64,000 nucleotides of DNA from Thermomicrobiales bacterium (GCA_038231255.1 JBBRLR010000004.1:17489-81488), one strand, 5' to 3'. Positions 14,590-63,948 are shown, numbered from the stretch's first letter. Numbers and translations: made by a program. The notes: generated by a model from the letters alone, not told the origin.

Positions 14590-14694
14590 GAAGTGAGCCG
14601 CCAAGACGCCACGAACGCCAAGAAGAGTGGGAAAAAGAAATACTGATGTTTCTTTCTCTCTTTCTCGGCATTCGTGGCGTCTTGGCGGCTTATT
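14590..14694. repeat. Long decamer-arm hairpin (copy F1)
   Basis: The left arm gccgccaagacgccacgaacgccaagaag pairs with the right arm cggcattcgtggcgtcttggcggc. The centre is purine-rich on the + strand (gggaaaaagaaa). It lies between convergent genes. Confidence 0.85.
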
Positions 14695-14701
14695 TAGATA
14701 G

Positions 14702-25026: not shown

Positions 25027-27273
25027 ATGCAGCATCTCCGGGCGGTTTCACTGGCCGGGTCATGGCGCTTTCGGACCGATCCGGATCGTCTGGGCGACCT
25101 CACGTCCGCCGATCTCGTGCAGTCCGCCGACGACGAGTGCGCATTCCATCTGCCCACCTACGACGACAGCGACTGGCAGGCGATCCCTGTCCCCGGCAAC
25201 TGGCAGCAGTTCGGCCACGACTACAATGGCGTCGCCTGGTACCGGACGCGCTTCGTCCGGCCTGATTTTCCCGGCGATGGCGTCGCGCGGCTCCGCTTCG
25301 CGGGGGTGGATTACTACGCCGATGTTTGGCTCAACGGCTTCTACCTCGGTTCGCACGAAGGGTATTTCGCCCCCTTCACTTTCGATTGCACCCGCTGGCT
25401 CCGGGACGACAATGTGCTGGTCGTGCGCGTGGACAGCCCGAACGATGTGCGCGTCAAACACAAGCGCGAGCACGAACGCAAGACGCTCATCAAGGGCGCA
25501 TTGCAGGATTGGGATGTTAACAACCTCGATGTGAACCCCGGCGGTATCTGGAGCGACGTGACGCTGCTCCTGTCCGGGCCGCAGTACATCGCGGAGGTGC
25601 GCGCCGATGTGGATTTGGCCGCGCACGCTGCAACGGGCCGCGCCTCGCTCGCCTTGCGCGTCACGCTCGTCAACGCGCTCCCCGCCGCCGTGGATGCTCG
25701 CGTGCGGCTGACGCTCGCGCCCGCCACCTTCACTAGCGAGACGATCGAGGAGGAGGGGCGCATCCGCCTCCTGCCCGGCCCGAATGTCCATACCCTTTGG
25801 CTGCAAATCCCCGATGCCCGCCTTTGGTGGACGTGGGATCAGGGGCGGCCCGATTTGTACGCGCTCACCGTCACAGTCGGCACGGGCGAGACGCCGGGCG
25901 ACAGCGTCACGGAGCGGATCGGGCTGCGCACCGTCGAGCGGCGCGGCGCGGGCTGGGCGACGTACCTCAATGGCCGCCGCATCTTCTGGCGGGGCGCCAA
26001 TTACCTTTCCGATCAACTGCTCGGTTCAATGACGCCCGAACGGTACGCGCAGGATGTCCGCCTCCTCCACGAGGCGAACATGAACGTGGTGCGCCCCTTC
26101 TGCGTCGTCGAGCATGCCGCCTTCTACGCGGCGTGCGACGCGGCGGGGCTGCTCGTTTATCAGGACTTCCCAATGCAATGGCGGATGGCGAACGACTCCG
26201 ACCTTGTGCGGCGCGCGACGCGGCAGGCGGAGGAGATGATCGCGCTGCTGGCAAACCATCCGTCCGTTTTTCTGTATTGCTACGGCTCGGAGCCGGGCGA
26301 GGCGAACTTCAAGAAGCTGAGCATGGCGCTTGCCGCCACCTCCCGTGCGGCGGACTCGATGCGCATCACTCATCAGGCGAATGAGTACGCCGGCCACTGG
26401 GAGATCATGGCGGAGCGCGAGCGGTATGGCTGGCCGGTGGACATGCACCTCTACAGTGGCTGGTACACCGACGCCTTCGGCGAACTCTACGATCTCGCGC
26501 GCTACACGCCGGAGCATTTCGAACTGGTCACCGAGTATGGCGCGCAGGCGCTCCCCGCGCAGGAACTCCTGCACGCCATCCTGCCGCCCGAGCAGCGCGC
26601 CTGGCCACCGACGCCGCGCGCCCTCCGCACCCTGAAACGCCGCTGTATGCAGCCCGAGCCGCTCTTTCGCGCCGTGCCGGACGCGACGAGTTGGCAGGAT
26701 TTGATCGCCAAAAGCCAGGCGTATCAGGCGCTCGTCCTCAAGTTCCACACCGAGCACTACCGGCGGCTGAAGTACGCGCCGTGCAACGGCGCCGTAATGT
26801 TCACCTTCAACGATTGCTGGCCCGCCGTGACGTGGTCGGTCGTGGACTACGCGCGCCGTCCCAAGCAGGGCTATTACGCCTTGCAGCAAGCCTTCGCGCC
26901 GCTCCATGTCATGCTGAACTGGGTCGCGCCGCTCGCCGCGACGCTCGGCACGCCGTGGCAGGCGGAGATCATCGTCGTCAACGATCTGCCGGAGTCGTTC
27001 GCGGGCCTGATCGCCGGCTGGCTCGTCCGGCACGATGCGACGGGCGCGATCCTCGCCGAAGGCTCGATCCCGTGCGACGTGGCGGCGGACTGCCCGGCGA
27101 CGCCAATCGGCGTCCTGCCACTGCGCCCCCCGCCGGACGCGCCCGTCGGCCCCTGCACCATCGCCCTCCGCCTCACCGACCGAAACGGCGACATCCGCGC
27201 CACGAACGCCTACACCCTCATCCTCCGCGCCCCCTGGCAGACCACGACCTCATCCCTGCGGACGGAAACCTGA
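25027..27273 (+). CDS. Glycoside hydrolase family 2 (beta-mannosidase/exo-glucosaminidase-like)
   Basis: GH2 sugar-binding N-terminus (WQAIPVPGNWQ, GVAWYRTRF, VDYYADVWLNGFYLGSHEGYFAPF), then a TIM-barrel segment. Start MQHLRAV at 25027. Confidence 0.8.
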   Translation: MQHLRAVSLAGSWRFRTDPDRLGDLTSADLVQSADDECAFHLPTYDDSDWQAIPVPGNWQQFGHDYNGVAWYRTRFVRPDFPGDGVARLRFAGVDYYADVWLNGFYLGSHEGYFAPFTFDCTRWLRDDNVLVVRVDSPNDVRVKHKREHERKTLIKGALQDWDVNNLDVNPGGIWSDVTLLLSGPQYIAEVRADVDLAAHAATGRASLALRVTLVNALPAAVDARVRLTLAPATFTSETIEEEGRIRLLPGPNVHTLWLQIPDARLWWTWDQGRPDLYALTVTVGTGETPGDSVTERIGLRTVERRGAGWATYLNGRRIFWRGANYLSDQLLGSMTPERYAQDVRLLHEANMNVVRPFCVVEHAAFYAACDAAGLLVYQDFPMQWRMANDSDLVRRATRQAEEMIALLANHPSVFLYCYGSEPGEANFKKLSMALAATSRAADSMRITHQANEYAGHWEIMAERERYGWPVDMHLYSGWYTDAFGELYDLARYTPEHFELVTEYGAQALPAQELLHAILPPEQRAWPPTPRALRTLKRRCMQPEPLFRAVPDATSWQDLIAKSQAYQALVLKFHTEHYRRLKYAPCNGAVMFTFNDCWPAVTWSVVDYARRPKQGYYALQQAFAPLHVMLNWVAPLAATLGTPWQAEIIVVNDLPESFAGLIAGWLVRHDATGAILAEGSIPCDVAADCPATPIGVLPLRPPPDAPVGPCTIALRLTDRNGDIRATNAYTLILRAPWQTTTSSLRTET

Positions 27274-27387
27274 ACGCAGAGCGCGCAGACATCGCAGAGG
27301 GGAGAAGAGAACGAACGAAGTGTCTTGAACCGAGAGTTCCTACTTGTTCTCTCTGCGTTCTCTGCGTCCTCTGTGCTCTCTGCGTTA
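27273..27387. repeat. Long decamer-arm hairpin (copy F2)
   Basis: gaacgcagagcgcgcagacatcgcagagg ... ctctctgcgttctctgcgtcctctgtgctctctgcgtt. The GH2 stop TGA (27271-27273) abuts the arm. Confidence 0.85.
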
Positions 27388-27418
27388 CCGTTCCCTTTTC
27401 GCCGAGTGGAGGTAGTAC

Positions 27419-30234: not shown

Positions 30235-30445
30235 ATCGAGAAAGAACGACTCCGCTATTCGCGGCGCAATTCCCTCTAAACAAGACAGTACCATGCAGGG
30301 ATGGATTGTGCAACTGTTCACAATGTTAGGAAAATGTGAGCCGGTTTGTGCGTACGTTCGCGGTGCGTCGTGCGATTTGGCTCTGTGAACAAAGCGACAA
30401 TCGGCGAGTTGTGCGATTGACAAACCGGGGAGAACGGCAAAGAAA

Positions 30446-30543
30446 GGGGGAGTTGAACCACGAAGGCGCGAAGAGCACAAAGGGAGAGGAGAGAGGGAGT
30501 TGATTTTTTCGTTCCATCTTCGCGCCTTCGTGGTTCAACTCCC
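30446..30543. repeat. Long decamer-arm hairpin (copy F4)
   Basis: gggggagttgaaccacgaaggcgcgaagagcacaaaggg ... ccatcttcgcgccttcgtggttcaactccc. The right arm encodes the last codons and TGA of the epimerase gene. Confidence 0.8.
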
Positions 30544-31266
30544 TTTTTCAATCTGGGCGGCGTACCGCTCGGCGTCGTCCTCGGGTTGGTAGCCGAGTTG
30601 CTCCTGGGTCGGGCCGATGTCCCAGTAGCGCCGGGTGTTGCCGGAGATCGCGTAGAAGATGCCCCAGGTGAGCGGCGTCTCGATGGCGCGCCACGCCAGT
30701 TGCGCCATGTCGCGCGGGGAGAGCCAGGTGCTGAGGTTGCGGACATTCGTCGGCTCCGGCAGCCACGAGCCGATGCGCAGGCAGATCACTTCCAGGCCGT
30801 GCTCGTCCACATAAAGGCGGGCGATCGCCTCGCCGAACGCCTTGGACGCGCCGTAGTAGCCGTCCGGGCGTACCGGCATGTCCGGGTAGCAGGGGCGACC
30901 CTTTAGTTCGTAGTAGCCCGTGACGTGGTTGGTCGTCGCGAAGACCATCCGATGTACGCCCTCATGCCGCATCGCCTCCAGCACCGTGTACTGGCCGACG
31001 ATGTTGTTGTTGAGGGCATCTTCCCACGGCGTTTGCACGGCGGAGGATGCCGCAAGATGGATCACGGCGTCGCAGCCGCGCATCGCGGCGCGCATTCCGT
31101 CCATGTCGGTGAGATCGGTCTGGACGATCTCTTCGCCCTCCCGCGCGGGGCCGACGGGTGTCCCGCCCGGCCGCTCCTGCAGACGCAGCGCGTACCGCCC
31201 TTTCAGCAGTTCCCGGAGCGACTCCCCGATCTTCCCACTTGCGCCGGTCATCAAAACCTTTTTCAT
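30535..31266 (-). CDS. NAD-dependent epimerase/dehydratase (SDR family)
   Basis: MKKVLMTGASGKIGESL (Rossmann GxxGxxG) and a YGASK catalytic motif. Confidence 0.85.
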   Translation of the reverse strand: MKKVLMTGASGKIGESLRELLKGRYALRLQERPGGTPVGPAREGEEIVQTDLTDMDGMRAAMRGCDAVIHLAASSAVQTPWEDALNNNIVGQYTVLEAMRHEGVHRMVFATTNHVTGYYELKGRPCYPDMPVRPDGYYGASKAFGEAIARLYVDEHGLEVICLRIGSWLPEPTNVRNLSTWLSPRDMAQLAWRAIETPLTWGIFYAISGNTRRYWDIGPTQEQLGYQPEDDAERYAAQIEKGS

Positions 31267-32817: not shown

Positions 32818-33471
32818 CTACCGCGCAACGAGGCTGTTCGCGAGCATGATGTGGAGGATCGTTGGGCGAAGATCGGGATGATCGAGAGGGATAATCCGAT
32901 CGGGTGGGCAGACGAGATCGTCCCGCGTACCCTCGTAGAGGGCGAGGGCAATCTCGTGGTTGTGCGCGTTCGGATAAAGTATTCCGTCAATGTCCGGGTA
33001 GGTCGCCGGGGTTTCGTAGAAATACCGCGACCAGGGCTGCGAAAGCGTGTGATCGCATGCGGCAACGGCGGCGACGGTACCCGCGTTCATCGCCGCTTTC
33101 CCGCGAAGGTCCAAGAGGCGGAGATTCCGCCAGACGACCGGCGTCGCGATGTGCCAATGCGCGAATTCGACGATGCCCGTGTCGCCGAAGATTTCGACGA
33201 GACACGAGGAGAGTCCGTTCGATTGGTCGGTTGACCAGCCGCCGTAATAGATCCCGCGCGCGGGATCATCCGTTGGCTTGCCGGTGGCCGCATCGCGCCG
33301 GTGGTGATCGAATCGCCATTTGGGACCGTGATAGCGGAAGGAGAGCGCCGTCTGGCGATACCGGCTCGTCGGATCGAACAAACGAACAAGCGCGGCGCCG
33401 GATGGCACCGCGCAGAATTTCGGGTATAAGCGGCGGGTCGGGTCGGGCGGAGGTGGGCTGACGACGACCAC
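32818..33471 (-). CDS. RES domain toxin (ParT/MbcT class)
   Basis: WRFDHH (Arg), GIYYGGWS...LSSCLVEIFGD (Glu), and DGILYPNAHNHEIALALY, where the family Ser position appears to be Asn. GTG start 1 nt after the antitoxin stop. Confidence 0.75.
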   Translation of the reverse strand: MVVVSPPPPDPTRRLYPKFCAVPSGAALVRLFDPTSRYRQTALSFRYHGPKWRFDHHRRDAATGKPTDDPARGIYYGGWSTDQSNGLSSCLVEIFGDTGIVEFAHWHIATPVVWRNLRLLDLRGKAAMNAGTVAAVAACDHTLSQPWSRYFYETPATYPDIDGILYPNAHNHEIALALYEGTRDDLVCPPDRIIPLDHPDLRPTILHIMLANSLVAR

Positions 33472-33472
33472 G

Positions 33473-34129
33473 CTAGTTCACCCCAACAGCCTCAGCGAGT
33501 GCAATGATCCGCGCGACATCGCCCCGTTTCAGTACATCGAGCGGGGACGCACCCTCCAGATGCTGATTCGCGCGCGTGAGCCAGCTCACCTTCGCGAGCG
33601 GCGATACGTCGAGCGCCTTGAGCGCCATCGGCAAGCCCGCGACGACGCCATCCGGCCCCTCGGCATCGAATTGCCAGAGCGGAAAGTACCACGCGCCGCG
33701 ATCCTGCACGCCCAGCAAGGTGCCGCTCTCGACGCGGTCGTGGGGGGTTTGCCGACTTGTCCCCAGCAGCTTCGCCACCTGCGGCGCCGTAATCGCATCC
33801 TTCAGCAACTCACGCCGCCGTGCGAACGACGCGGTCAGCACGCGTGTTTCCAACTCGACGATCTCGATGGGGGTGTAGGTCCGCCCACCGGTAAGGGTAT
33901 TGATGAGATCGGCATGGGACGCATCGGGGGCGCGTGTTTCGAGCGCGCGCTCGACGCGAGAAAGCGCTTCGGTCTGCTCTGCGGGATCGAGGTCGTTTAA
34001 TCGGGACTCGATGCCCCGCGCGGCCTTGATGATCGTTGGCCGGTCCTTTTTGTTGTACCGCGTCGGATCCGTGATCTGGATAGCGATCATCGTCTTTCCG
34101 TGAACCCTTTCCTGCACCTGACCGGTCAC
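33473..34129 (-). CDS. Xre/MbcA/ParS-type antitoxin (HTH plus DUF2384-like toxin-binding C-terminus)
   Basis: The C-terminus VSWLTRANQHLEGASPLDVLKRGDVARIIALAEAVG matches the DUF2384 pattern. The middle ITAPQVAKLLGTSRQTPHDRVESGTLLGV is an HTH. The start may be ATG 34090. Confidence 0.75.
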   Translation of the reverse strand: MTGQVQERVHGKTMIAIQITDPTRYNKKDRPTIIKAARGIESRLNDLDPAEQTEALSRVERALETRAPDASHADLINTLTGGRTYTPIEIVELETRVLTASFARRRELLKDAITAPQVAKLLGTSRQTPHDRVESGTLLGVQDRGAWYFPLWQFDAEGPDGVVAGLPMALKALDVSPLAKVSWLTRANQHLEGASPLDVLKRGDVARIIALAEAVGVN

Positions 34130-35544: not shown

Positions 35545-35580
35545 TAAAAAGAAATCGGGCAGGTACATCACCTGCCCGAT
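35545..35580 (-). terminator. Rho-independent terminator of the cysM-mec-cysO/moeZ operon
   Basis: Minus strand: tcgggcaggt gatgt acctgcccga followed by tttcttttt, 18 nt after the stop at 35598. Confidence 0.75.
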
Positions 35581-35597: not shown

Positions 35598-37082
35598 CTA
35601 GTACTTCGGCAGTGACGGATCCACGTCGTCGGACCAGGCGAGGATGCCGCCATTGAGATTCTTCAACTTGCGGAAGCCCGCGTCCTTGAGGATGCCGAGC
35701 GCTTTGGCCGAGCGGACGCCGGAGCGGCACTGCAAAACGATCTCGTCCGCCGAATCGAGTTCGTGCATCCGCGCGGGCACATCGCCGAGCGGGATGAAAC
35801 GGACATCCGGCTCCTTGATCGTGCCGAGCGCCCACTCGTGCGGCTCGCGCACATCCACGATGACGAGATGCTCGCCCGCGTCCAGCCGCCGCTTCAACTC
35901 GCGCGGCGTGATCTCCCACTGCGCCTCCAAATTGACTTCTGGCCCCGACGTAATGCCGCAGAACTCGTCGTAGTCAATCAGGTGCTTGATGGTTGCGTGT
36001 TCGCCGCAGATCGGGCAGCTCGGGTCCTTGCGCAGTTTGTACTCGCGGAACTGCATCTTCAGCGCGTCGAACCGGAGCAGGCGACCGATCAGCGGGTCGC
36101 CGATGCCGATAATCAGTTTCAGCGTCTCTGCCGCCTGCAACGCGCCGACGATGCCGGGCAGCACGCCGAGCACACCGCCCTCCGCGCAGGACGGGACGAG
36201 GCCCGGCGGTGGCGGCTCCGGATAAAGGCAGCGGTAGCACGGCCCTTCGTTCGCGTAGAAGATCGAGACCTGCCCCTCGAAGCGGAAGATCGAGCCGTAG
36301 ACATTCGGCTTACCGAGCAGCACGCAGGCGTCGTTGACGAGGTAGCGCGTCGGGAAGTTGTCTGTCCCGTCCACGATGATGTCGTAGTTCTTGAAGATGT
36401 CCAGCGCGTTCTCACTGGAAAGGCGCGTCTCGAAGGTCGTAATCTCGGTGTACGGGTTGAGGGCGGTCAGCCGTCGTTTCGCCGCTGCCAGTTTCGACGT
36501 GCCGATGTCCTCAGTCGTGAAGGTCACCTGCCGCTGAAGGTTCGACGAGTCCACGACATCGGCGTCCACGATGCCGATGTGGCCGACGCCCGCCGCCGTC
36601 AGATACAAGCCGAGCGGCGCGCCGAGGCCACCCGCGCCGACGAGTAGGACGCGCGCCTGCTTCAGCTTCTTCTGCCCCGCCAGCGTCACCTCCGGCATGA
36701 TGAGGTGGCGGCTGTAGCGGCCAATCTCGTCCGGCGAGAGTTCCACGTCCTCCGCATCTGCTCCCTCTCCCGCCTGGCGGGGGAGGGTAGGAGAGAGGGC
36801 CGTGCCGCCCGCAATCGAGGGCACAATCGTCACCGTATCGCCGGAGGCGACGGGTGTCGCATCCTTCTGGAGATAGCGGATGTCCTCGTCGTTCAAATAG
36901 ACATTGACGAACGAGCGCAGTTGGCCGCTGTCGTTGTACAGGTGCTTCTTCAGGTCCACGTACTCGCCGGTCAGCTGCCCAAGCACCTCGCCAATGGTGC
37001 TGCCGGCCAGTTGCACCTGCTCCTTGCCCCCGGCGAACTGCCGCAGCGCCGTCGGGATCAAAATCGTCACATTCTCCGCCAT
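35598..37082 (-). CDS. CysO-like sulfur carrier fused to MoeZ-type E1 adenylyltransferase and rhodanese
   Basis: aa 1-93 form a beta-grasp like M. tuberculosis CysO (VTILIPTALRQFAGG, FVNVYLNDEDIRY, ends VPSIAGG). A linker follows. The E1 part has RYSRHL, LLVGAGGLGAP, CYRC and CPIC zinc motifs. The rhodanese has active-site QCRSGVRS. Confidence 0.85.
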   Translation of the reverse strand: MAENVTILIPTALRQFAGGKEQVQLAGSTIGEVLGQLTGEYVDLKKHLYNDSGQLRSFVNVYLNDEDIRYLQKDATPVASGDTVTIVPSIAGGTALSPTLPRQAGEGADAEDVELSPDEIGRYSRHLIMPEVTLAGQKKLKQARVLLVGAGGLGAPLGLYLTAAGVGHIGIVDADVVDSSNLQRQVTFTTEDIGTSKLAAAKRRLTALNPYTEITTFETRLSSENALDIFKNYDIIVDGTDNFPTRYLVNDACVLLGKPNVYGSIFRFEGQVSIFYANEGPCYRCLYPEPPPPGLVPSCAEGGVLGVLPGIVGALQAAETLKLIIGIGDPLIGRLLRFDALKMQFREYKLRKDPSCPICGEHATIKHLIDYDEFCGITSGPEVNLEAQWEITPRELKRRLDAGEHLVIVDVREPHEWALGTIKEPDVRFIPLGDVPARMHELDSADEIVLQCRSGVRSAKALGILKDAGFRKLKNLNGGILAWSDDVDPSLPKY

Positions 37083-37107
37083 ATCATGACCTCCTCATAT
37101 CAGATCG

Positions 37108-37245
37108 GAAACCGGGGATGAACGGCAAAGACGCAAAGAGCGCAGAGACGCAAAGAAGAAAGAGAAAAAGGACGGGATCCATCTTTCTTTCTTCCCCTTT
37201 GCGTCCTTCGCGTCCTTTGCGTCTTTGCGGTTCATCCCCGGTTTC
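37108..37245. repeat. Long decamer-arm hairpin (copy F5), inside the operon
   Basis: gaaaccggggatgaacggcaaagacgcaaagagcgcagagacgcaaagaag ... cctttgcgtccttcgcgtcctttgcgtctttgcggttcatccccggtttc. Confidence 0.9.
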
Positions 37246-37256
37246 TCCCGTCTTCC

Positions 37257-37688
37257 TCAGCCACGCTCGATGATCTGCTCTTCATTGTAGCCGGAGCGGT
37301 CGGCTTTGAGCACCCAGGACTTAAGATCGAGGGCAATGCCCTTGTAGACGCCCTGAATGATGTAGGAATAGGTCGGCCAGGCGAAGTCGCGATCCGTTTC
37401 GGAGGGGCGCGGCTCGCTGTCCGGGTGGGAGTGGTAGAAGCCGAGCAGTGCCATGCCCGCTTCCCGCGCCCGCCGCTCCTCGTGTGCGATCACCTCCGGC
37501 CCGATCTGGAAGCGCCGCCGCCGCTCGTCCACCTGCTCCCAGGCATTCTCGACCGGTACCGTCTCGCGCACGACCTTCTCATCGCCCTGCATCACACCGA
37601 TCAACAGCCCGCACACCTCGTTCGGGTATCCATTCTCGCTCTGCCGACACACCGTCGCCCTGAGCGCATTTGTCCACACCAGGTTCAT
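37257..37688 (-). CDS. mec: JAMM/MPN+ metalloprotease (Mec-like)
   Basis: EVCGLL plus HSHPDSEPRPSETD (H-x-H-x7-S-x2-D JAMM motif), 143 aa. Confidence 0.85.
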   Translation of the reverse strand: MNLVWTNALRATVCRQSENGYPNEVCGLLIGVMQGDEKVVRETVPVENAWEQVDERRRRFQIGPEVIAHEERRAREAGMALLGFYHSHPDSEPRPSETDRDFAWPTYSYIIQGVYKGIALDLKSWVLKADRSGYNEEQIIERG

Positions 37689-37710
37689 TCTCGCTCCTCA
37701 CAACGATTCA

Positions 37711-37815
37711 GCACGGAGGACACGGAGGCCACAAAGAGCACAGAGAATGAATACGATCGAGAGTCTTCTCATTTGTCTTTCTCTGTGTCCTCTGTGTCCT
37801 CTGCGATCTCTGTGT
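37711..37815. repeat. Long decamer-arm hairpin (copy F6), inside the operon
   Basis: gcacggaggacacggaggccacaaagagcacagagaatga ... tttctctgtgtcctctgtgtcctctgcgatctctgtg. Confidence 0.85.
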
Positions 37816-38753
37816 TATCCCCTTCCCGCATCTTCGCCCCAGAAGGGGAGCGAGAGGTACTTGGCCGCGCCATCGCAGAAGATCGTGACGACCGTGCCCG
37901 TGTCAAGGGTCGCGGCGACGCGCAGGGCGGCAACGGTGTTCGCGGCGGCGGAAACGCCGACCAGCACGCCTTCCTCGCGCGCCAGCCGTTTGACCATCGC
38001 GTGCGCGTCGTCTGTGCTCACTTCCTCGATCATATCCGCCAGCGAAGGATCGTAGATGCCGGGGACGATGGCGGAGACGTAGTGCTTGATCCCCTCGATG
38101 CCGTGGAGCGGGCTGTCCGGCTGGACGGCGACGAGGCGCACGGCGGGGTTGTAGTCGCGCAGACGGCGACCCGCGCCCATCAAGGTGCCGCTCGTGCCTG
38201 TCGCGGCGACGAAATGCGTCACCGCACCGTCCGTCTGCTCCCAGATTTCCGGCCCGGTCGTTTCGTAGTGGGCGCGCCAGTTGGCTGCGTTGTTGAACTG
38301 GTCAGGGTAGAAATACCGCTCCGGGTCGGCGGTGTGGCGGCGTTGCACCTCGTGGATTGCGCCATCGAACCCCTCCGCCGGATCGGTCTCGACGAGCGTT
38401 GCGCCGTACGCCGCCAGCATACGCTTACGTTCCTCGCTCGCGTTCGCCGGCATGCAGAGTTCGACCCGATAGCCGAGTGTCGCGGCGATCATCGCGTAGG
38501 CGATGCCGGTATTGCCGCTCGTCGCGTCCAAAATCGTCTTGTCCGCCGTCAGGAGGCCGCGCGCGATGCCGTCCCGGATCATCGCGAGGGCGGGGCGATC
38601 CTTGACACTGCCGCCGGGGTTGTTCATCTCCGCCTTCGCCGCGACGGTGACGCCCGCCGGCAGGTGCGCCGTGATCTGTGTCAGCCGGATCAACGGCGTG
38701 TTGCCGATCATATCGAGCACGGTCGTCGTGCCTTGTGCCGTTATCTGCGCCAT
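37815..38753 (-). CDS. cysM: Cysteine synthase B-type PLP enzyme (CysM)
   Basis: IGNTPLIRL, NPGGSVKDRPA (PLP lysine), SGNTGIA, TGTSGT. Start MAQITAQG at 38753. Confidence 0.9.
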   Translation of the reverse strand: MAQITAQGTTTVLDMIGNTPLIRLTQITAHLPAGVTVAAKAEMNNPGGSVKDRPALAMIRDGIARGLLTADKTILDATSGNTGIAYAMIAATLGYRVELCMPANASEERKRMLAAYGATLVETDPAEGFDGAIHEVQRRHTADPERYFYPDQFNNAANWRAHYETTGPEIWEQTDGAVTHFVAATGTSGTLMGAGRRLRDYNPAVRLVAVQPDSPLHGIEGIKHYVSAIVPGIYDPSLADMIEEVSTDDAHAMVKRLAREEGVLVGVSAAANTVAALRVAATLDTGTVVTIFCDGAAKYLSLPFWGEDAGRG

Positions 38754-38858
38754 CGGTGCTCGTCCCTCCACGCGTTCGCGGCGCGCATTGTCGCAGAAGT
38801 TGCGTAACAAACGCAACAACGCGTCGCACCTGCGTAGTGGTCACAACGGTAGGAAAGG

Positions 38859-39479
38859 GTGCAGCATTCCCGCATTGCTCATTACGCCCTGCTCTCTTAC
38901 TATGATCGAGAGAATGGATGCAGCGCAGGGAAAGGCAAGCATTTGCAAACGGGTGATCTGGCGCCGGATGTGACGGTGACGATTGAGGACAAGCAGGTAC
39001 GGCTGCGCGATTTCGTCGGTGAGCAGCGCGTCGTCCTCTATTTCTATCCCAAGGATTCCACTCCCTCCTGCACGCTGGAGGCGCGCGGGTTCAATGATCT
39101 CATCGAGCAGTTCGCCACAAATGGAGCAGTGGTCATTGGCGTCAGTACGGACGACGTGACCTCGCACGCCCGATTCGCCCGGCGAGAGGGATTGCGTTTC
39201 TCGCTCGGCACGGACCCGGACGGCACGCTCGCGACGGCCTTCGGTGCAGCCAATCGGCTCGTGCAGGGGATCGTCGCGAAGCGCGTCACATTCCTGATCG
39301 AGCGGGACGGTCGCATCGCCCGCATCTGGGATCGCGTCAACCCGCACACGCATCCGCTGGACGTACTGGATGCGGTGCGCGCCCTAAACCCCACCTGCTC
39401 ATGCTGCCCGGAGGGCGCCCGCGCCCGGTTCCCCACCGGGGAAGGGGAGCGGTATGGTGGTGTCATCCCTGCGAAATAA
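38859..39479 (+). CDS. bcp: Peroxiredoxin (Bcp-type thiol peroxidase) with C-terminal Cys-rich extension
   Basis: GDLAPDVTV...VVLYFYPKDSTPSCTLEA...GVSTDD. The real start may be TTG 38943 after gggaaagg. The tail NPTCSCCPEG is atypical. Confidence 0.8.
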   Translation: MQHSRIAHYALLSYYDRENGCSAGKGKHLQTGDLAPDVTVTIEDKQVRLRDFVGEQRVVLYFYPKDSTPSCTLEARGFNDLIEQFATNGAVVIGVSTDDVTSHARFARREGLRFSLGTDPDGTLATAFGAANRLVQGIVAKRVTFLIERDGRIARIWDRVNPHTHPLDVLDAVRALNPTCSCCPEGARARFPTGEGERYGGVIPAK

Positions 39480-39486
39480 CCGCACA

Positions 39487-41114
39487 TCAGCGTGAGGCTG
39501 GGACTGGGTTCGGGACACCGCCGCCACCACCACCGGGCCGCGGGGATGGCGGAGGGTTCGGCGGGCCACCGGAGGGTGCGGGGCCGGGACGCGGCGGCAC
39601 CGGCACCGGATTGGGGACGGCGACATCGGCCTCGAACGCGCCGATGCTGCACCGGTCGGAACGGCGGAAGAAGCCGCGCTGATCCTTGCCGCTGGTTGGT
39701 AGGGCGGCGCAGGCGTTGGGGTCGGCGGTGTCCTTGGCGGCGCTGCCGGGGAGGAGGGCGAGGGTCTGGGTGGGGCCGCCGTTATCCTTGAGGGTGTCGA
39801 GGTTCGGATTGCCGTGCTGCGTCATAGTGTCGGTGAAGGCGCAGGTGCTCGTCGGATTGAACTCGAGGTTATGACCGCCGTCGGTGATCGCGCCGGAGCA
39901 GTTGGCGAACGTGCCACCGGTGTTGACGGAGAGGAGCGTGTTGATGGCGCTCCGCGTGTTGATGCCGGTGTTGGCCAGCCCGCCCCCGGCGGCGCCGTTC
40001 GTGCCAGGTGCACCCGGTGTGCCGGGATTTGGGCCTGTGCCACCCGATCCACCGCCACCGCCGCTCGCGCTATTGGCGGCAATCGTGACGTTGCCGATGT
40101 TTGCGGAACCGGTGTTGGATACCGCGCCACCTGCGCCCACACCGCCGTTACCGCCGTTATCGCCGTTGCCGGTGTGGCCGGCGAAGCTGCCTCCGGTGCC
40201 GCCATTGCCACCGCCGCCGCCGGTGGCCTGATCGGCGAAAAAGGTGCTGTTCGTCAGTGTAAGCGTGCCGCCACCCTTGGAGACGGCCCCGCCCGATGCG
40301 CCGCCGCCCCCGCCGCCGTTGCCGCCGGTCGCGCTGTTCCCGCTGAAGCGGCTCCCCATCACCGAGAAGGAGGACGCCGACGTGACCGCGATCGCACCTC
40401 CGGTCGCGGACCCGCCGTCGGTGCCGGGTGAACCGGGGGCGCCGGCCCCGCCCGTCACCTGGTTGCCCGTGAACTGGCTGTTCGTCGCGGTGAAGCCGCC
40501 GCCGCCGACGTACACGCCGCCGCCGTAGCCGACCGCGCTGTTGTTGCTCACGACGCTGTTATTCAGGGCGAGCAGCCCGCTGGTGCTGGAGATCCCCCCG
40601 CCACGGTTGATCGCGCTGTTGTTGCTCACGACGCTGTTATTGAGCACGACCGTCCCGGAGCTGGCGAAAGCCCCGCCCCCCCCCGAGCGTGTCGTGGCCG
40701 TTGCTGAGCGTCAGGTTGTTGAAGGTCACGCTTTTGCCAAGGCCGATCGTGAAAATCCGGTCGCTGATGCTGCCGTTGATCACCGTTGCGCCCGCGCCCG
40801 CGCCGTTGATCGTCACATTGGACTGGACATCGGCTCGACCATTGGTCAACGCATATGGTGTGAGGATCCCGGGCAGGGTAATCGTCGTCAGGTCGGATGT
40901 ACCCGCATGCGTGTTGGCGAAGCTAATAGCGTCCCGCAGGGGAGCAGGCATCCATGCCGGAGGTGGCGCAGGCGTTGGTGTCATCGGTGGTATGGTCCAC
41001 GGTGACGACGAAGCTCGCCGCCCCCACCGTCGTAACGGAGAGCGTGGCGAGGAGCGCGCCGAGCACGAGTGCAAACAGGGCGATCCGGGATCGGTGGTCA
41101 GCATGGCGATGCAT
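39487..41114 (-). pseudogene. Secreted beta-helix repeat protein (choice-of-anchor-Q-like) interrupted by two +1 frameshifts
   Basis: Three ORFs join into one protein. 41114-40923 has the signal peptide and ends ...DACSP. 41104-40637 begins at LRDAISFAN and runs to ...HDTLGGG. 40647-39487 has the NNSVVSNNSA/GGG repeats, then DQRGFFRRSDRCSIGAFE and a Pro-rich tail. The frame breaks sit at a C4 run (40939-40942) and a G9 run (40676-40684) on the coding strand. Confidence 0.7.
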
Positions 41115-56589: not shown

Positions 56590-56713
56590 GACCGCAACGG
56601 CGCAAAGGACACAAAGAGCGCAAAGAAAGTTATGAGAGGGAAACCCTTGCAATCCCTCCCCTTGCTTCCTTCCCTCGTTGCGTCCTTTGCGCTCTTTGCG
56701 CCTTTGCGGTTCA
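56590..56713. repeat. Long decamer-arm hairpin (copy F7)
   Basis: gaccgcaacggcgcaaaggacacaaagagcgcaaagaaag ... cgttgcgtcctttgcgctctttgcgcctttgcggttc. The minus-strand tip tgaaccgcaaagg supplies the TGA of the S9 peptidase gene. Confidence 0.85.
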
Positions 56714-60678: not shown

Positions 60679-62592
60679 ATGAACGACACGGCGAAACGGA
60701 CGGTGCATCCCTTCCTCGCGCGGGTGCAGGACACGGCGCGCGGGCCGCTCCTCTTCGATGGCGCGATGGGCACCCTGCTCCACATGCGCGGGGACGAGCC
60801 GATGGATACCTGCTTCGTCGCGCTCAATAAATCCCGGCCCGACCTCGTCTCGTCGCTCCACCGCGACTACATCGCGGCGGGCGCGGAAGCGATCAAGACG
60901 AACACCTTCGCGGGCAACCGCTTCCAGTTGGAACTCCATGGCTGGGGCGACGAGGTGCGCGATCTGAACAAGCGCGCCGCGAAACTCGCCCGCGACGCCC
61001 GCGAGATCAGCGGACAGGCGGTCTGGATCGCCGGCAGTGTCGGCCCGACCGGGCGGCTGCTCGCGCCCATCGGTATGAGTGCCATCAAGGAGATCCACGC
61101 CGCCTTCCGCGAGCAGATCGAGGTGCTCGTCGAGGGCGGCGTGGATCTGCTGCTCCTCGAAACCTTCTCATCGCTCGCCGAGATTCGTGAGGCGATCGCG
61201 GCGGCGCGCGCCGTCTCCGACTTGCCGATTATCGCCTCGATGACCTACGCGGACGACGACCGCACGCCCGTCGGCCACGCCCCGCCCGATGTGGCGCGCG
61301 AGTTGACGCGCCTCGGCGTGGACTGCATCGGCGCGAACTGCTCGGTTGGGCCGCAGAATGTTACGCGCGTCGCTCTCACCCTCCGGCAGGCGACGCACCT
61401 GCCGATCAGTGCGATGCCGAACGCCGGCTGGCCCGCCAACCTCAACGGGCGGATCGTCTACGCCTCCTCGCCCTCGTATCTCGCGGCGCACGCGCGGCAG
61501 GCTGCGGAGGCGGGCGTCCGCATCCTCGGCGGTTGCTGCGGCACCGAACCGGCGCACATCGCCGCGATGCGGCAAGCGCTCGATGCCCTATTCGCCCTCG
61601 ATTCGCAGGTCGCGAAGCACCCGAATGGCGCCGCCGTGGCGATCACGATGCTCCCGGCGGAGGCAACGGACGCCGGGCTTGATGAGCCGGAGTACGGTAG
61701 CGAGTTCGGGCGCAAACTGGCGCGCGGTGCGTTCGTCACGACGGTCGAGGTCGCCCCGCCGCGCGGCCTCAACCCGGCAAAGGTGCTCGCCGGGGCGCGG
61801 CTGCTCATGGAGGCCGGGGTGGACGCCGTGGATGTCACGGACAGCGCCCGCGCCCGCCTTTCGATGAGCCCAATCGCGACCTGCGCGCTGATCCAGCAGA
61901 AGGTCGGCATCGAGACGATCATTCATCTGACCACGCGCGACCGCTCCCTAATGGGCTTGCAGGCGGACTTGCTCGGCGCGCATGCGCTCGGCCTGCGCAA
62001 CGTCCTCGCCCTCACCGGCGACCCTCCCTCACTGGGGAATTACCCGAACTCCACGGCGGTCTACGATGTGGACTCCGTCGGACTGATCGGTATTCTCAAG
62101 CAGATGAACGAGGGTGTGGATATCGGCGGCAACCCAATCGGCGCGGCCGCCGGCTTCACCATCGCCTGTGCCGTTGACCCGACGCGCGACGATTTGCACG
62201 AGGAAGCGCGGCGCTTGAAACGGAAGATCGCGGCGGGCGCGCACTTCGTGATGGCGCAGCCGATCTTCGATCTCGACCGCTGGCGGCGCTTCCTCGATAT
62301 TTACGGCGCCGTCGAGATTCCCGTCCTGCTCGGTATTCTGCCCTTGCAGAACACGCGGCACGCGGAGTTCCTGCACAACGAGGTGCCCGGCATCGTCTTG
62401 ACCGACCGCGTCCGCCAACGCATGGCGGACGCCGGGAACGACGGTCGTCACGTCGGCATCGCCCTCGCGCAGGAACTGATTGTGGAGGCGAAAGACCTCG
62501 TGCAGGGCATCTACATGATGCCCTCCTTCGGTCGCTACGAACAAGCCGCCGCTGTCCTGTCCGCCATCCGCGAACCGGCAACCGGGGATTGA
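60679..62592 (+). CDS. yitJ: Bifunctional homocysteine S-methyltransferase / 5,10-methylenetetrahydrofolate reductase (YitJ-like)
   Basis: The N-terminal domain has LLFDGAMGT, GANCSVGP and GGCCGTEPAHI (zinc Cys ligands). The C-terminal MTHFR domain has VTTVEVAPPRG, HLTTRD, LALTGDPP and QPIFD. Confidence 0.9.
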   Translation: MNDTAKRTVHPFLARVQDTARGPLLFDGAMGTLLHMRGDEPMDTCFVALNKSRPDLVSSLHRDYIAAGAEAIKTNTFAGNRFQLELHGWGDEVRDLNKRAAKLARDAREISGQAVWIAGSVGPTGRLLAPIGMSAIKEIHAAFREQIEVLVEGGVDLLLLETFSSLAEIREAIAAARAVSDLPIIASMTYADDDRTPVGHAPPDVARELTRLGVDCIGANCSVGPQNVTRVALTLRQATHLPISAMPNAGWPANLNGRIVYASSPSYLAAHARQAAEAGVRILGGCCGTEPAHIAAMRQALDALFALDSQVAKHPNGAAVAITMLPAEATDAGLDEPEYGSEFGRKLARGAFVTTVEVAPPRGLNPAKVLAGARLLMEAGVDAVDVTDSARARLSMSPIATCALIQQKVGIETIIHLTTRDRSLMGLQADLLGAHALGLRNVLALTGDPPSLGNYPNSTAVYDVDSVGLIGILKQMNEGVDIGGNPIGAAAGFTIACAVDPTRDDLHEEARRLKRKIAAGAHFVMAQPIFDLDRWRRFLDIYGAVEIPVLLGILPLQNTRHAEFLHNEVPGIVLTDRVRQRMADAGNDGRHVGIALAQELIVEAKDLVQGIYMMPSFGRYEQAAAVLSAIREPATGD

Positions 62593-62735
62593 GCGCAGAG
62601 AACGCAGAGGACGCAGAGGGCGCGGAGACTACAGAGAAGAGATTTGGAAATATATGAATTGGTAGGAAATTCTTCCACTCCCTCTTTCAACTCCCTTTCT
62701 CTGGGTTCTCTATGCTCTCTGCGTCCTCTGCGCTC
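62591..62735. repeat. Long decamer-arm hairpin (copy F8) whose two tips carry the stop codons of both convergent genes
   Basis: The left tip is tgagcgcagagaacgcagaggacgcagagg. The reverse complement of the right tip is tgagcgcagaggacgcagagagc. The yitJ-like TGA (62590-62592) and the MFS TGA (62734-62736) are the terminal TGAs. Confidence 0.85.
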
Positions 62736-63948
62736 AACCCCCTCGTCCGTACCGGAACCAGGATGCGGCGGCGGTGAGGAAGAAGAGGGCGGCGGCGAGG
62801 GCGAAGATGAATGAGAGCGAGAGCCAGTCCGCCACCCAGCCGAGGGCGAGGCCGGAGACGAGGAAACCCATCTCGAAGACGCCCGTTTGCGTCGCCAGTG
62901 CCGCCCCGCGCCGTTCGGGGGGCACGAGGTCCACCGCGAGGGCGTTCAGTTCGGGGAGGACGAGGCTGATCGCCCCGCCCCAGATCAGCGCGGCGACGAC
63001 AAAGGCAGGGAAGACGGGGAAGGCGGTCAGGATTGTCAGGCCGACGCCGAGTGCGATCAGGCCGGGGATCAGCACGCGCCACCGCCCATAGCGGTCCGAC
63101 CACCGGCCGCCGACCGCCCGCACGACGAAGAACATCAGCGCGTCGAAGGTGAAGAAAAACCCCGCGCCCGACAAATGTCGCTCGTCCATCAGCGGCACGA
63201 GAAAAGCGAACACTACCCCGTTCCCCAATGCCGTCACGAAACTCGGAATCGCCGCTGGCAGCACCCGCCATTCGAGTAGCGATCCCCGCATTTGCTCCCC
63301 CTTCCCCCGTGGGGGAGAAGGAAGGGGGGGTAGGGCTGCTCCCGCCCGCAGCGGCAGCAGCAACAGCGCGCAAAGCAGCCCCGCGCCCGCCGAGAGTGCG
63401 AAGGTCAGGTGATACGACACATGCGTCGCGACGAGCAGGCCGACCGGTGGCCCGATGGCGATGGCGACCGTTGAGGCAACCGACGATAGCCCGATTGCCT
63501 CGCCCCGCCGCGTTTCGGGCGCGAGTTCCGCCGCCATCACGACGCTGCCGGTGAGGAAGATCGCCGACGCGACGCCCTGGAACAGTCGGACGGCGATCAG
63601 CACCCAGAGCAGCGTGCCGATCCCGTAGAGCGGTGATGAAAGCATCATCACCGCGCCGACGATCAGGAGCGGAAGGAGCGCGCCCCGATCCATTGCGCGG
63701 CCAAGAAAGGGCCGGGACAGGATCGCGCTGATCGAGAGCGCCCCGATGACGAGGCCGATCCGCCCATTCGAGAAGCCGTGCGCTTGCATATACTGTGGCA
63801 GCGCCGCTTGCAGCACGAAGATCGTGAAGAACCACATGCCCGTTGCCGCGAGAAAAAGTACGAAGCGCGGTGACGCCAGCGGCGACCGATCCGTCTGATG
63901 AGAGGATATTGGGGAAATCGCTGCGGTGATAGTCGGTTCGTTCCCCAT
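62734..63948 (-). CDS. MFS transporter
   Basis: 404 aa with about 12 TM segments and MFS loop LGRAMDRG. Confidence 0.85.
   Translation of the reverse strand: MGNEPTITAAISPISSHQTDRSPLASPRFVLFLAATGMWFFTIFVLQAALPQYMQAHGFSNGRIGLVIGALSISAILSRPFLGRAMDRGALLPLLIVGAVMMLSSPLYGIGTLLWVLIAVRLFQGVASAIFLTGSVVMAAELAPETRRGEAIGLSSVASTVAIAIGPPVGLLVATHVSYHLTFALSAGAGLLCALLLLPLRAGAALPPLPSPPRGKGEQMRGSLLEWRVLPAAIPSFVTALGNGVVFAFLVPLMDERHLSGAGFFFTFDALMFFVVRAVGGRWSDRYGRWRVLIPGLIALGVGLTILTAFPVFPAFVVAALIWGGAISLVLPELNALAVDLVPPERRGAALATQTGVFEMGFLVSGLALGWVADWLSLSFIFALAAALFFLTAAASWFRYGRGG

Follow-up and report, generated by a model that had tools for sequence, protein, structure and literature searches.

We asked how a sulfur carrier that is encoded as the N-terminus of its own activating enzyme could enter E1 chemistry, which needs a free carboxylate; at Gly93 of the protein considered here, this is impossible without proteolysis. 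The protein (494 aa) is encoded in DNA of a Thermomicrobiales bacterium (GCA_038231255.1 JBBRLR010000004.1:17489-81488; this whole stretch of 64,000 nt is called the window), on the minus strand together with the genes for a CysK/CysM-family PLP enzyme and a JAMM/MPN+ metalloprotease. On balance, we favour the reading that the cysM-like, JAMM and cysO::moeZ genes form a three-gene operon for protein-thiocarboxylate-dependent sulfur transfer into cysteine, in which the carrier is made at the N-terminus of its own E1-rhodanese and the JAMM enzyme cuts this precursor.

Three co-directional genes and their products

An earlier note on this DNA had described three co-directional minus-strand genes; their coordinates and motifs all check out, and profile searches returned the domains that it had assigned (ThiS, ThiF, Rhodanese, Prok-JAB and PALP). 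The cysM-like ORF (37815-38819, minus strand) is open as far as a TTG at 38819. Its probable ATG start lies at 38753, which agrees with the end coordinate given in the note, and yields a protein of 312 aa; alignments with homologues from related loci begin at residue 1 of this version. The product of 37815..38753 (minus strand) is assigned as a CysK/CysM-family PLP-dependent cysteine synthase from its matches to PALP (PF00291, E 1e-69, 235 bits), to NCBIfam and to PDB entries and from the SVKDR motif, with the PLP-binding Lys at residue 51. The NCBIfam matches all fell below their cut-offs (TIGR01138 cysM, 357 bits vs 394; TIGR01136 cysKM, 342 vs 344; PRK11761, 321 vs 413). The best PDB matches were CysM of E. 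coli/Salmonella (2.5e-68), and M. tuberculosis CysM was not among the top 60 PDB sequence matches. The label 'mycobacterial-type' calls for caution on this point. Use of a protein thiocarboxylate by this enzyme is putative and is suggested by the operon context alone.

The JAMM gene (37257..37688, minus strand, 143 aa) lies upstream of the fusion gene (35598-37082, minus strand), with a gap of 174 nt between the end of the former and the start of the latter. This interval holds a long REP-like hairpin with 63-nt arms (37108..37245; RNA fold -98 kcal/mol, z = -10.6), partly kept in L004, the nearest relative. An imperfect hairpin of short tandem repeats with 39-nt arms, one copy of a REP-like element family, occupies the intergenic interval 37712..37814, and similar elements are found at 14591, 27264, 30442, 56591 and 62584. 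Immediately 3' of the fusion-gene stop codon, a terminator-like hairpin (35554..35580, minus strand; 12-bp stem with 7 GC pairs, then TTCTTTTT) likely marks the end of the operon.

The fusion protein begins with a CysO-like beta-grasp sulfur-carrier domain (residues 1-93, 36804..37082, minus strand) with the C-terminal motif VPSIAGG. ThiS (PF02597) matched residues 7-93 over the complete profile (1-76/76, E 2e-12, 47.8 bits vs a cut-off of 22.5). As the note had proposed for residues 1-93, the domain resembles M. tuberculosis CysO, its closest solved relative: an alignment pairs residues 4-93 with residues 2-93 of PDB 3DWG chain C over the full length (E 9e-21), Gly-Gly on Gly-Gly. In the AF2 model residues 1-89 are folded with confidence. 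The codons of G92-G93 (GGC GGC) are at 36804-36809, and the reading frame is open beyond them, both as the note had it; the ORF runs on in frame for 401 residues, so that the gene product has no free C-terminal Gly carboxylate.

The second domain (residues about 113-378, 35949..36746, minus strand) is a ThiF/MoeB/MoeZ-type E1 adenylation domain (ThiF, PF00899, at 123-357, E 2e-83, 279 bits) with the motifs GAGGLG at 149, CYRC at 282, PSCAEGG at 297 and CPIC at 356. The GxGxxG motif, both CxxC pairs and the crossover-loop Cys299 are conserved among 65 homologues (C359 in at least 90% of the sequences, the others invariant), and Foldseek matched the fold to MoeB 1jw9_B and ThiF 1zud at TM 0.93-0.95. 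Of the NCBIfam models, PRK08762 MoeB scored above its cut-off (471.5 bits vs 449); PRK07411 (522 vs 633) and MoeZ PRK07878 (498 vs 647) scored below theirs. The protein ends in a rhodanese sulfurtransferase domain (residues about 389-494, 35601..35918, minus strand; PF00581 at 392-485, E 3e-15, 57 bits), whose top Foldseek match is Uba4 6yub_A. Its active-site motif CRSGVRS begins at C452; both C452 and R457 are invariant in the same 65 homologues.

An invariant Gly-Gly precedes a variable linker

Carrier and E1 are joined by a linker (residues 94-112, TALSPTLPRQAGEGADAED; 36747..36803, minus strand) that is hypervariable and predicted to be disordered, with the proposed cleavage site at its start, between G93 and T94. 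The note had also placed a linker here, though of 20-25 aa; relative to split E1s the extra segment comes to about 19 residues (94-112). The model gives pLDDT <50 at residues 90-111. Across loci the linker measures 11-45 aa, and a single 90%-identity cluster brings together 481-aa and 494-aa variants that differ by a 13-aa linker indel. Among the 65 homologues P88, A91, G92 and G93 are invariant and no column between G93 and E119 is; Gly-Gly is kept in all 153 related loci. An invariant Gly-Gly beside a variable, disordered linker is the selection pattern expected for a carrier that is released. In 55 of 59 fused junctions the P1' residue is Ser, Ala, Thr or Val. Such small residues (like Cys), together with split carriers whose tails start with Cys, would fit a protease whose other substrate is carrier-GG-Cys.

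Could the beta-grasp domain instead never be released? It would then stay attached to the E1 for docking or regulation, a role proposed for the Ub-like N-terminus of Campylobacter-type ThiF, and another part of the genome would supply the true carrier. ThiF proteins that carry a fused Ub-like domain do occur alongside a standalone ThiS, and their role is probably a different one (Iyer et al. 2006, PMC1779556), and the genome was viewed over 64 kb only, beyond which it may encode other carriers. Yet those ThiF-fused domains were called 'distinct from ThiS' (PMC1779556), whereas the domain here is CysO from end to end with its Gly-Gly intact, and that Gly-Gly does not vary in the 153 loci. Nor did a second carrier turn up: tblastn found no other CysO-like ORF in the 64-kb window, in accordance with the note, which had seen no free-standing beta-grasp ORF in the locus; the window has no plausible short ORF ending in GG; and a second carrier is absent from all of about 160 fetched loci. 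The domain is, moreover, a separate gene in split relatives, with which the fused form has repeatedly interchanged (see below). We therefore regard a permanently tethered domain as very unlikely and retain release of the carrier as the preferred reading.

Fused and split forms among relatives

To call the fusion rare or novel would be an overstatement. ThiS, ThiF and Rhodanese occur together in 116 of the best 120 protein clusters (of the four exceptions, the one checked, P0042, is a gene-call artefact). Species-level genome hits number at least 599, and among the best 80 of them the majority have the fusion, in the order cysM-JAB-fusion. Fused relatives come from Chloroflexota, Acidobacteriota, Gemmatimonadota and other phyla; the fusion is found in many soil-bacterial species and is the prevailing form in several phyla. 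In relatives, the fusion protein is annotated merely as 'MoeB'. Release of ThiS/MoaD from fusion partners by JAB peptidases had been proposed in 2006 (PMC1779556), and cleavage of a SAMP1-MoaE fusion has been demonstrated (PMC4443979). On any member of the fused family itself, we found no experimental work in the searchable literature.

A sequencing or assembly error that erased a stop codon between cysO and moeZ would also produce such an ORF, and split relatives do exist, some with just one stop codon between the carrier and E1 ORFs. This explanation is effectively refuted: the same open junction recurs in several phyla, in assemblies made independently; NCBI has the identical 494-aa sequence on a 95-kb contig, in a 48-member 90%-identity cluster with 494- and 481-aa relatives; and L004, 95% identical, is likewise fused.

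A survey of orthologous loci, which the note had put forward, found both forms, with at least nine fused-split transitions on an E1 tree of 148 loci. Every one of the 82 split carriers runs on for 1-29 residues past Gly-Gly, with none stopping at GG itself; Cys is the first residue after GG in 15 of 83 split tails. As all 82 are extended, the carrier in this clade would always be a precursor, for which the E1 is the largest 'propeptide' here, and carrier maturation is, as far as the sequences predict, a family-wide trait.

The adjacent JAMM enzyme is the candidate maturase

The JAMM ORF matched Prok-JAB (PF14464) with E 2e-22 (80 bits vs a cut-off of 25), and its motif is intact (E24 and H86SHPDSEPRPSETD99, HxHx7Sx2D). 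The best NCBIfam match, desampylase NF041370, stayed below its equivalog cut-off (77 bits vs 130); the best PDB match was 2kcq_A, annotated as Mov34/MPN/PAD-1 family (5e-18). Of the 62 fused loci that could be evaluated, 60 have a JAB gene directly upstream, and such a gene is adjacent in 40 of 53 split loci. Together with the extended split carriers, this lends support to the adjacent JAMM as maturase, which the note had suggested, and makes it the obvious candidate for carrier release, with a cut after Gly93 as the best-supported mechanism. That a JAMM enzyme would hydrolyse the bond after the Gly-Gly of its cognate Ubl is argued by analogy (PMC4443979, PMC5925218).

Another enzyme could also make the cut after Gly93, either a housekeeping peptidase or the product of a JAMM gene at another locus, with the adjacent JAMM hydrolysing only the carrier-cysteine adduct, like M. 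tuberculosis Mec. In two fused loci (L076 and L078) and in 13 split loci whose carriers are extended, the fetched flanks contain neither JAB nor cysM, and the cut must fall to another protease or to a JAMM gene at a distance. M. tuberculosis, whose CysO has GG as its C-terminus, likewise has a JAMM enzyme, and the presence of a JAMM is thus not specific to precursors. For the cleavage of M. tuberculosis MoaX, the source names no protease (PMC4326299). Against this stand the immediately upstream JAB gene in nearly all evaluable fused loci and the fact that only JAMM enzymes of this type have been shown to cut exactly after the Gly-Gly of a sulfur-carrier Ubl (PMC4443979, PMC5925218). We consider a different protease unlikely.

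Proposed mechanism

The following scheme builds on what the sequences show: the architecture and its conservation, a Gly-Gly that never varies, a linker that is variable and predicted to be disordered, and C-terminal extensions throughout the family. Each enzymatic step in it is inferred. With Gly93 locked in a peptide bond, the 494-aa protein would be translated as an inactive precursor (step 1). The JAMM zinc protease would cut Gly93-Thr94 in the disordered linker (step 2), giving an E1-rhodanese of 401 residues and a carrier of 93 residues whose Gly-Gly carboxylate is free. The E1 would adenylate Gly93, and the rhodanese persulfide on Cys452 would convert it to the thiocarboxylate (step 3), whose sulfur the PLP enzyme would add to its own aminoacrylate intermediate (step 4). 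After an S-to-N acyl shift, the same JAMM, as a CysO-Cys hydrolase, would hydrolyse the carrier-Gly-Gly-Cys peptide bond and free cysteine (step 5). In both step 2 and step 5 the JAMM would hydrolyse a Gly-X peptide bond in the tail of the carrier, so that the two share one chemistry.

The released carrier might instead serve mainly molybdopterin synthesis, tRNA thiolation or covalent protein modification of the TtuB/SAMP kind, with the JAMM as deconjugase and the cysteine synthase only supplying or recycling sulfur. The best NCBIfam names, which apart from PRK08762 MoeB score below their equivalog cut-offs, lean this way: the E1 is named MoeB and MoeZ, the Ubl SAMP1 and the JAMM desampylase. 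MoeZR is reported to be dual-use in mycobacteria (PMC3227635), and protein conjugation has been raised for JAB-linked operons (Iyer et al. 2006, PMC1779556). However, the three-gene linkage with a cysteine-synthase-family enzyme is strict across phyla, the closest solved relative of the carrier is CysO, and the gene calls read for three loci show no MoaE, ThiG, tRNA-thiolase or E2-like gene beside the cassette. We judge such another main process to be quite unlikely, and cysteine remains the favoured destination of the sulfur.

Might the fusion be a zymogen-like switch rather than a neutral merger? The carrier would be inert while attached and might block or occupy the E1; cutting by the JAMM would then make carrier and E1 active together, in a fixed 1:1 ratio. 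We give this idea only a small chance. If true, the protease would control entry into thiocarboxylate-dependent cysteine synthesis, in oxidative stress for instance, and the protein would be the first natural Ubl with its own E1 as 'propeptide'. The C-terminal extensions seen throughout the family, among them Cys-rich tails and GG-Cys tails resembling the product adduct, would in that case have a regulatory role.

Comparison with known systems

The M. tuberculosis CysO-CysM-Mec-MoeZ pathway has the same four functions: a GG beta-grasp carrier, a PLP cysteine synthase, a JAMM hydrolase and an E1-rhodanese. There, the carrier is a separate GG-ended protein; here it is fused to the E1, and a maturation cut is therefore needed. 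The E1 gene here is within the operon, whereas in M. tuberculosis moeZ is an unlinked gene. The PLP enzyme is nearer to E. coli CysM than to M. tuberculosis CysM, so that its substrate may be either O-acetylserine or O-phosphoserine.

The same gene set in overlapping phyla constitutes operon type 4c (ThiS/MoaD, E1-rhodanese, JAB and cysteine synthase), described from Solibacter, Rubrobacter, Chloroflexus, Salinibacter and others (Iyer, Burroughs and Aravind 2006, PMC1779556). The type 4c table and text record no carrier-E1 fusion, and the sole Ubl-ThiF fusion discussed there pairs a non-ThiS domain with a separate ThiS.

Trimming has been described or proposed for QbsD/QbsE (thioquinolobactin) and CxnF/CxnE (chuangxinmycin), which share with our locus the extra residues past Gly-Gly, a neighbouring JAMM gene and a MoeZ-type E1 (PMC5925218). 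The fusion has both marks of a JAMM-matured precursor, with 401 residues past GG and the JAMM gene adjacent. QbsE-type extensions measure 1-10 residues, as against a 401-residue enzyme, the carrier's own E1, here; the split relatives, with their short tails, resemble QbsE. HcyS/HcyD is reportedly another such pair, in which a JAMM trims a sulfur-carrier precursor with extra residues past Gly-Gly.

Carriers joined through Gly-Gly to a pathway partner are also known. HvJAMM1 cuts an engineered linear SAMP1-MoaE fusion exactly after GG, a cut that is needed for function and whose JAMM dependence has been shown (PMC4443979), and M. tuberculosis MoaX is cleaved after Gly82, which is likewise required (PMC4326299). 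In both, the partner is the sulfur-acceptor MoaE rather than an E1, and the product is molybdopterin rather than cysteine. Ubiquitin precursors (polyubiquitin and ubiquitin-ribosomal protein fusions) are similarly linear Ubl fusions cut by a protease after Gly-Gly (PMC11354881); they differ in being eukaryotic, in being processed mostly by cysteine-protease deubiquitinases and in having a partner that is not an E1.

Results

The fusion gene (35598-37082, minus strand) encodes a 494-aa protein with Pfam matches to ThiS (residues 7-93), ThiF (123-357, E 2e-83) and Rhodanese (392-485), and residues 7-93 cover the ThiS profile from its first position to its last. On the same strand lie the JAMM gene (37257-37688, 143 aa; Prok-JAB, E 2e-22, Pfam) and the cysM-like ORF (37815-38819, 312 aa from a probable ATG at 38753; PALP, E 1e-69, Pfam). 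The catalytic signature of the JAMM protein (E24 and H86-x-H-x7-S-x2-D99) is intact, as are the E1 motifs GAGGLG, CYRC, PSCAEGG and CPIC and the rhodanese active-site motif C452RSGVRS in the 494-aa protein, and the SVKDR lysine of the PLP enzyme. The codons GGC GGC at 36804-36809 encode Gly92-Gly93, and the reading frame is open beyond them. M. tuberculosis CysO (PDB 3DWG chain C, residues 2-93) aligned over its full length with residues 4-93 of the carrier (E 9e-21), the Gly-Gly of one coinciding with that of the other. Thus the earlier note, which had described three minus-strand ORFs with these motifs, the Gly-Gly codons within an open frame and the likeness of residues 1-93 to CysO, was correct in all of these points. 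Among the best 60 PDB sequence matches of the PLP enzyme, the closest solved relatives were E. coli and Salmonella CysM, and M. tuberculosis CysM did not appear. This enzyme scored just under the NCBIfam cysM/cysKM cut-offs, and the JAMM protein scored under the NCBIfam desampylase equivalog cut-off. The MFS transporter gene downstream of the fusion gene is probably a separate unit, as a strong terminator-like hairpin (35580-35554) follows the fusion-gene stop codon. On the other side, a gene for an AhpC/TSA-type peroxiredoxin (38859-39479, plus strand) is divergent from the cysM-like gene. The mycobacterial CysO pathway is linked to oxidative stress, and the peroxiredoxin fits this link; it is not kept in the relatives L002 and L003.

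We asked whether the fusion is real and how widespread it is. The identical 494-aa sequence is present in NCBI, on a 95-kb contig, and its 90% cluster contains members from Thermomicrobiales and Chloroflexota MAGs that are annotated "molybdopterin-synthase adenylyltransferase MoeB". The combination of ThiS, ThiF and Rhodanese was found in 116 of the 120 best protein clusters (64-95% identity). A genome scan with one genome per species yielded at least 599 relatives, the best 80 of which all matched the query from about residue 1-7 onward; they came from Chloroflexia, many classes of Acidobacteriota, Gemmatimonadota, Rubrobacteraceae, Eisenbacteria, Armatimonadota and others, and almost all of them repeated the gene order cysM-JAB-carrier-E1. 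An assembly error can be excluded as the origin of the fusion, since the fused form recurs across relatives of several phyla. The fusion is therefore real, as had been proposed, being present in these 116 clusters and in most loci among the best 80 relatives, and it is not a rarity. The survey of orthologous loci suggested in the same note revealed both forms, fused and split. No second carrier was found in any fetched locus, or in the source genome as inspected over the 64-kb window.

Some public annotations of orthologues begin at an internal codon (locus L001, 4078-5523; protein P0042; NCBI HEX5506856.1), so that a "MoeB" of 382 aa results and the carrier domain is hidden. P0042 could be taken for a split form; the DNA of L001 is one continuous fused ORF, and the 382-aa protein reflects a gene call that was cut short. 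Instead, it is the call for the JAB gene that is extended in L001. Full-length orthologues, too, bear the names MoeB or "ubiquitin-like small modifier protein 1".

All 153 fetched loci with a carrier match had a Gly-Gly that aligned with G92-G93. In an alignment of 65 sequences P88, A91, G92 and G93 were invariant, and there were zero conserved columns between G93 and E119. The distance from the Gly-Gly to the RYSRH motif varied from 11 to 45 residues across loci, and even within a single 90% cluster the linker differed by a 13-residue indel. AlphaFold2 modelled the 494-aa protein as three confident domains, with a pLDDT below 50 for residues 90-111. Judged from the alignments, the Gly-Gly appears to be under strict selection and the linker does not. 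An invariant Gly-Gly followed by an unconserved, length-variable linker of low pLDDT is the pattern expected of a cleavable tether, not of a domain that no longer serves as a carrier. Of 59 fused junctions, 55 had Ser, Ala, Thr or Val as the first residue after the Gly-Gly; the tails encoded after the Gly-Gly in split loci began with Ala, Cys or Ser in 45/83 cases (Cys in 15/83). Translation of a separate E1 from an internal start found no support: the sole in-frame candidate is a GTG at V113, where a Shine-Dalgarno-like GGAGG lies merely 2 nt upstream, and a nearby ATG lies in another frame.

Split forms made up about 17 of the 80 genome loci (the best 80 of at least 599 relatives) and, in a set fetched with an E1-only profile, 65 of 69 loci. 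A neighbour-joining tree built on the E1-rhodanese region of 148 loci (67 fused, 81 split) required at least nine changes of state under parsimony, indicating that evolution treats the fused and split forms as equivalent. The free-standing carrier ORFs of the split loci all overran the Gly-Gly, by 1-29 residues (median 5), and none of 82 split loci encoded a carrier ending at the Gly-Gly; five E1 loci whose upstream sequence was long enough lacked a carrier there. As all split carriers, like the fused ones, extend past the Gly-Gly, the carrier of this clade is, on sequence grounds, predicted to be always made as a precursor. The window protein is then an extreme precursor, its extension being the E1 itself.

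We also considered programmed stop-codon readthrough or recoding in the split relatives. In a first sample the carrier and E1 ORFs were in the same frame in 17/17 split loci, with a single stop between them in about half; this sample was possibly rank-biased, as the query had included the carrier domain. In the sample fetched with the E1-only profile, frame offsets of 0, 1 and 2 occurred 20, 22 and 23 times. The frame agreement of the first sample was thus a sampling bias, and recoding was rejected.

In some split relatives, mostly Terriglobia-type Acidobacteriota, the tails are Cys-rich (L022, 5547-5582; L038, 6268-6294; L043, 1721-1747; L062, 959-985; also L116, L142, L144, L153, L154 and L160). 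Examples are CCCC, CCEG, VNLCCICS, SMIRCICS, ..LNLRCICR, ..PCCCPSCCRP and CCPCGCCCCPR; at least two Cys are present in 25 of 83 tails, and roughly 10-15% of all tail residues are Cys. Cys codons repeated just ahead of the stop, with the E1 gene of a putative cysteine-synthesis operon downstream, could be an attenuation-like sensor of Cys-tRNA supply, or the peptide could be a metal- or persulfide-binding tail. In L084 and L140 the tail is a single Cys, so that the carrier is encoded as ...AGG-Cys-stop. This product has the same sequence as the carrier-cysteine adduct, the putative JAMM substrate of the pathway, and its maturation would free one cysteine.

The JAMM gene lies directly upstream of the fusion gene in 60 of 62 evaluable fused loci. 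Neither JAB nor cysM was found in the fetched flanks of two fused and 13 split loci. The latter form a JAB-less sub-clade (L044, L130, L133, L136-L141, L145, L151, L152 and L156), in which a JAB or cysteine-synthase gene was absent from the fetched 2.5-6 kb upstream and from the rest of the loci. The carriers of this sub-clade still extend past the Gly-Gly, and so either the gene for their trimming protease must lie elsewhere or the carrier-E1 pair must belong to another pathway.

No riboswitch or other known RNA was detected at the Rfam gathering threshold in the whole window. Long imperfect hairpins of one family are scattered over the window; they consist of short tandem repeats rich in purines, with the units CGCAGAG, CGCAAAG or ACACAGAG and their complements (14591-14695, 27264-27395, 30442-30549, 37108-37245, 37712-37814, 56591-56710 and 62584-62742). 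Two copies (37108-37245 and 37712-37814) occupy the intergenic gaps of the operon; the former folds with -98 kcal/mol (z = -10.6) and is partly kept in the 95%-identical relative L004. As members of a dispersed family with at least seven copies in the window, these hairpins are not specific to the operon, and we rejected them as operon-specific regulators; they look REP/MITE-like. Near the operon, a 386-aa Gly/Asn/Ser-rich repetitive protein with a Pro-rich C-terminus (39487-40647, minus strand) is encoded next to a 155-aa ORF (40637-41104, minus strand); neither has a Pfam match, and local GC at this gene pair reaches 0.68-0.72. A further pair (32818-34129, minus strand) encodes 218-aa and 217-aa products, the former with weak Xre/MbcA/ParS antitoxin and HTH matches, both under the Pfam cut-offs, and the latter with no Pfam match. 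This pair may be a toxin-antitoxin module.

Discussion

E1 chemistry requires a free carboxylate on the carrier. Apart from this requirement, we infer the following steps from homology and context. The carrier-E1-rhodanese would be made as a 494-aa precursor, which the JAMM protein would cut at Gly93|Thr94; the calculated masses are 53,645 Da for the precursor, about 9,981 Da for residues 1-93 (9,850 Da without Met1) and about 43,682 Da for residues 94-494. The E1 would then adenylate the freed Gly93, and a persulfide on rhodanese Cys452 would give a thiocarboxylate on the carrier. Sulfur would be passed to the aminoacrylate intermediate on the PLP enzyme, and after an S-to-N acyl shift JAMM hydrolysis would free cysteine. 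That the carrier is released at all by proteolysis at the Gly-Gly seems likely to us; the full chain, from the JAMM cut of the precursor through to cysteine release, we regard as more likely than not. In the mycobacterial pathway, the carrier-Gly-Gly-Cys peptide is the adduct hydrolysed by the Mec-type JAMM. Because the small or Cys residue after the Gly-Gly resembles this adduct, precursor cutting and product release may be the same reaction on near-identical substrates.

The carrier domain is masked in many genomes by the "MoeB" label or missed through truncated gene calls. Pathway reconstruction in Acidobacteriota, Gemmatimonadota and Chloroflexota therefore omits a predicted sulfide-independent route to cysteine. 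If JAMM cleavage is true, the operon would provide a natural bacterial Ubl that is made within its own E1 and freed by a JAMM protease, a direct prokaryotic counterpart of the way in which ubiquitin precursors are processed, and it would assign a defined protease to sulfur carriers with an internal Gly-Gly, a class related to MoaX.

The earlier note knew of no characterised self-fused CysO-MoeZ, and our literature search, with most subscription journals outside it, agreed: no paper on a characterised CysO-MoeZ fusion or on a carrier fused to its own E1 was found, and Ubl-E1 fusions received generic mentions only, such as those in Thaumarchaeota "shared with bacteria" (Makarova and Koonin 2010, PMC2948915). 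The gene set is that of operon type 4c of Iyer, Burroughs and Aravind (2006, PMC1779556), who proposed that JAB peptidases might free ThiS/MoaD from fusion partners; the sole Ubl-ThiF fusion they discuss involves a non-ThiS domain and occurs together with a separate ThiS. HvJAMM1 cleaves a linear SAMP1-MoaE fusion exactly after the Gly-Gly, in a reaction that is Gly-Gly-dependent and required for function (PMC4443979). QbsD is described as shortening QbsE by two residues, and CxnF has been proposed to shorten CxnE by ten (PMC5925218). In M. tuberculosis MoaX, cleavage by an unidentified protease is required after Gly82 (PMC4326299). An internal Gly-Gly is also present in a further natural carrier of solved structure, the 168-residue "MoaD related protein" 1v8c_A (PDB), in which about 80 residues follow a beta-grasp Gly-Gly at about position 87.

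All elements thus have close precedents, and the general idea goes back to a prediction of 2006. New here are the scale of the fused architecture, its repeated fusion and fission, the apparent rule that carriers of this clade are always precursors, and the finding that an apparent conservation of frame came from sampling bias. The reading of the fusion as a pro-protein was sensible. The finding belongs to a known system as one of its variants, widespread and unannotated, and is not categorically new.
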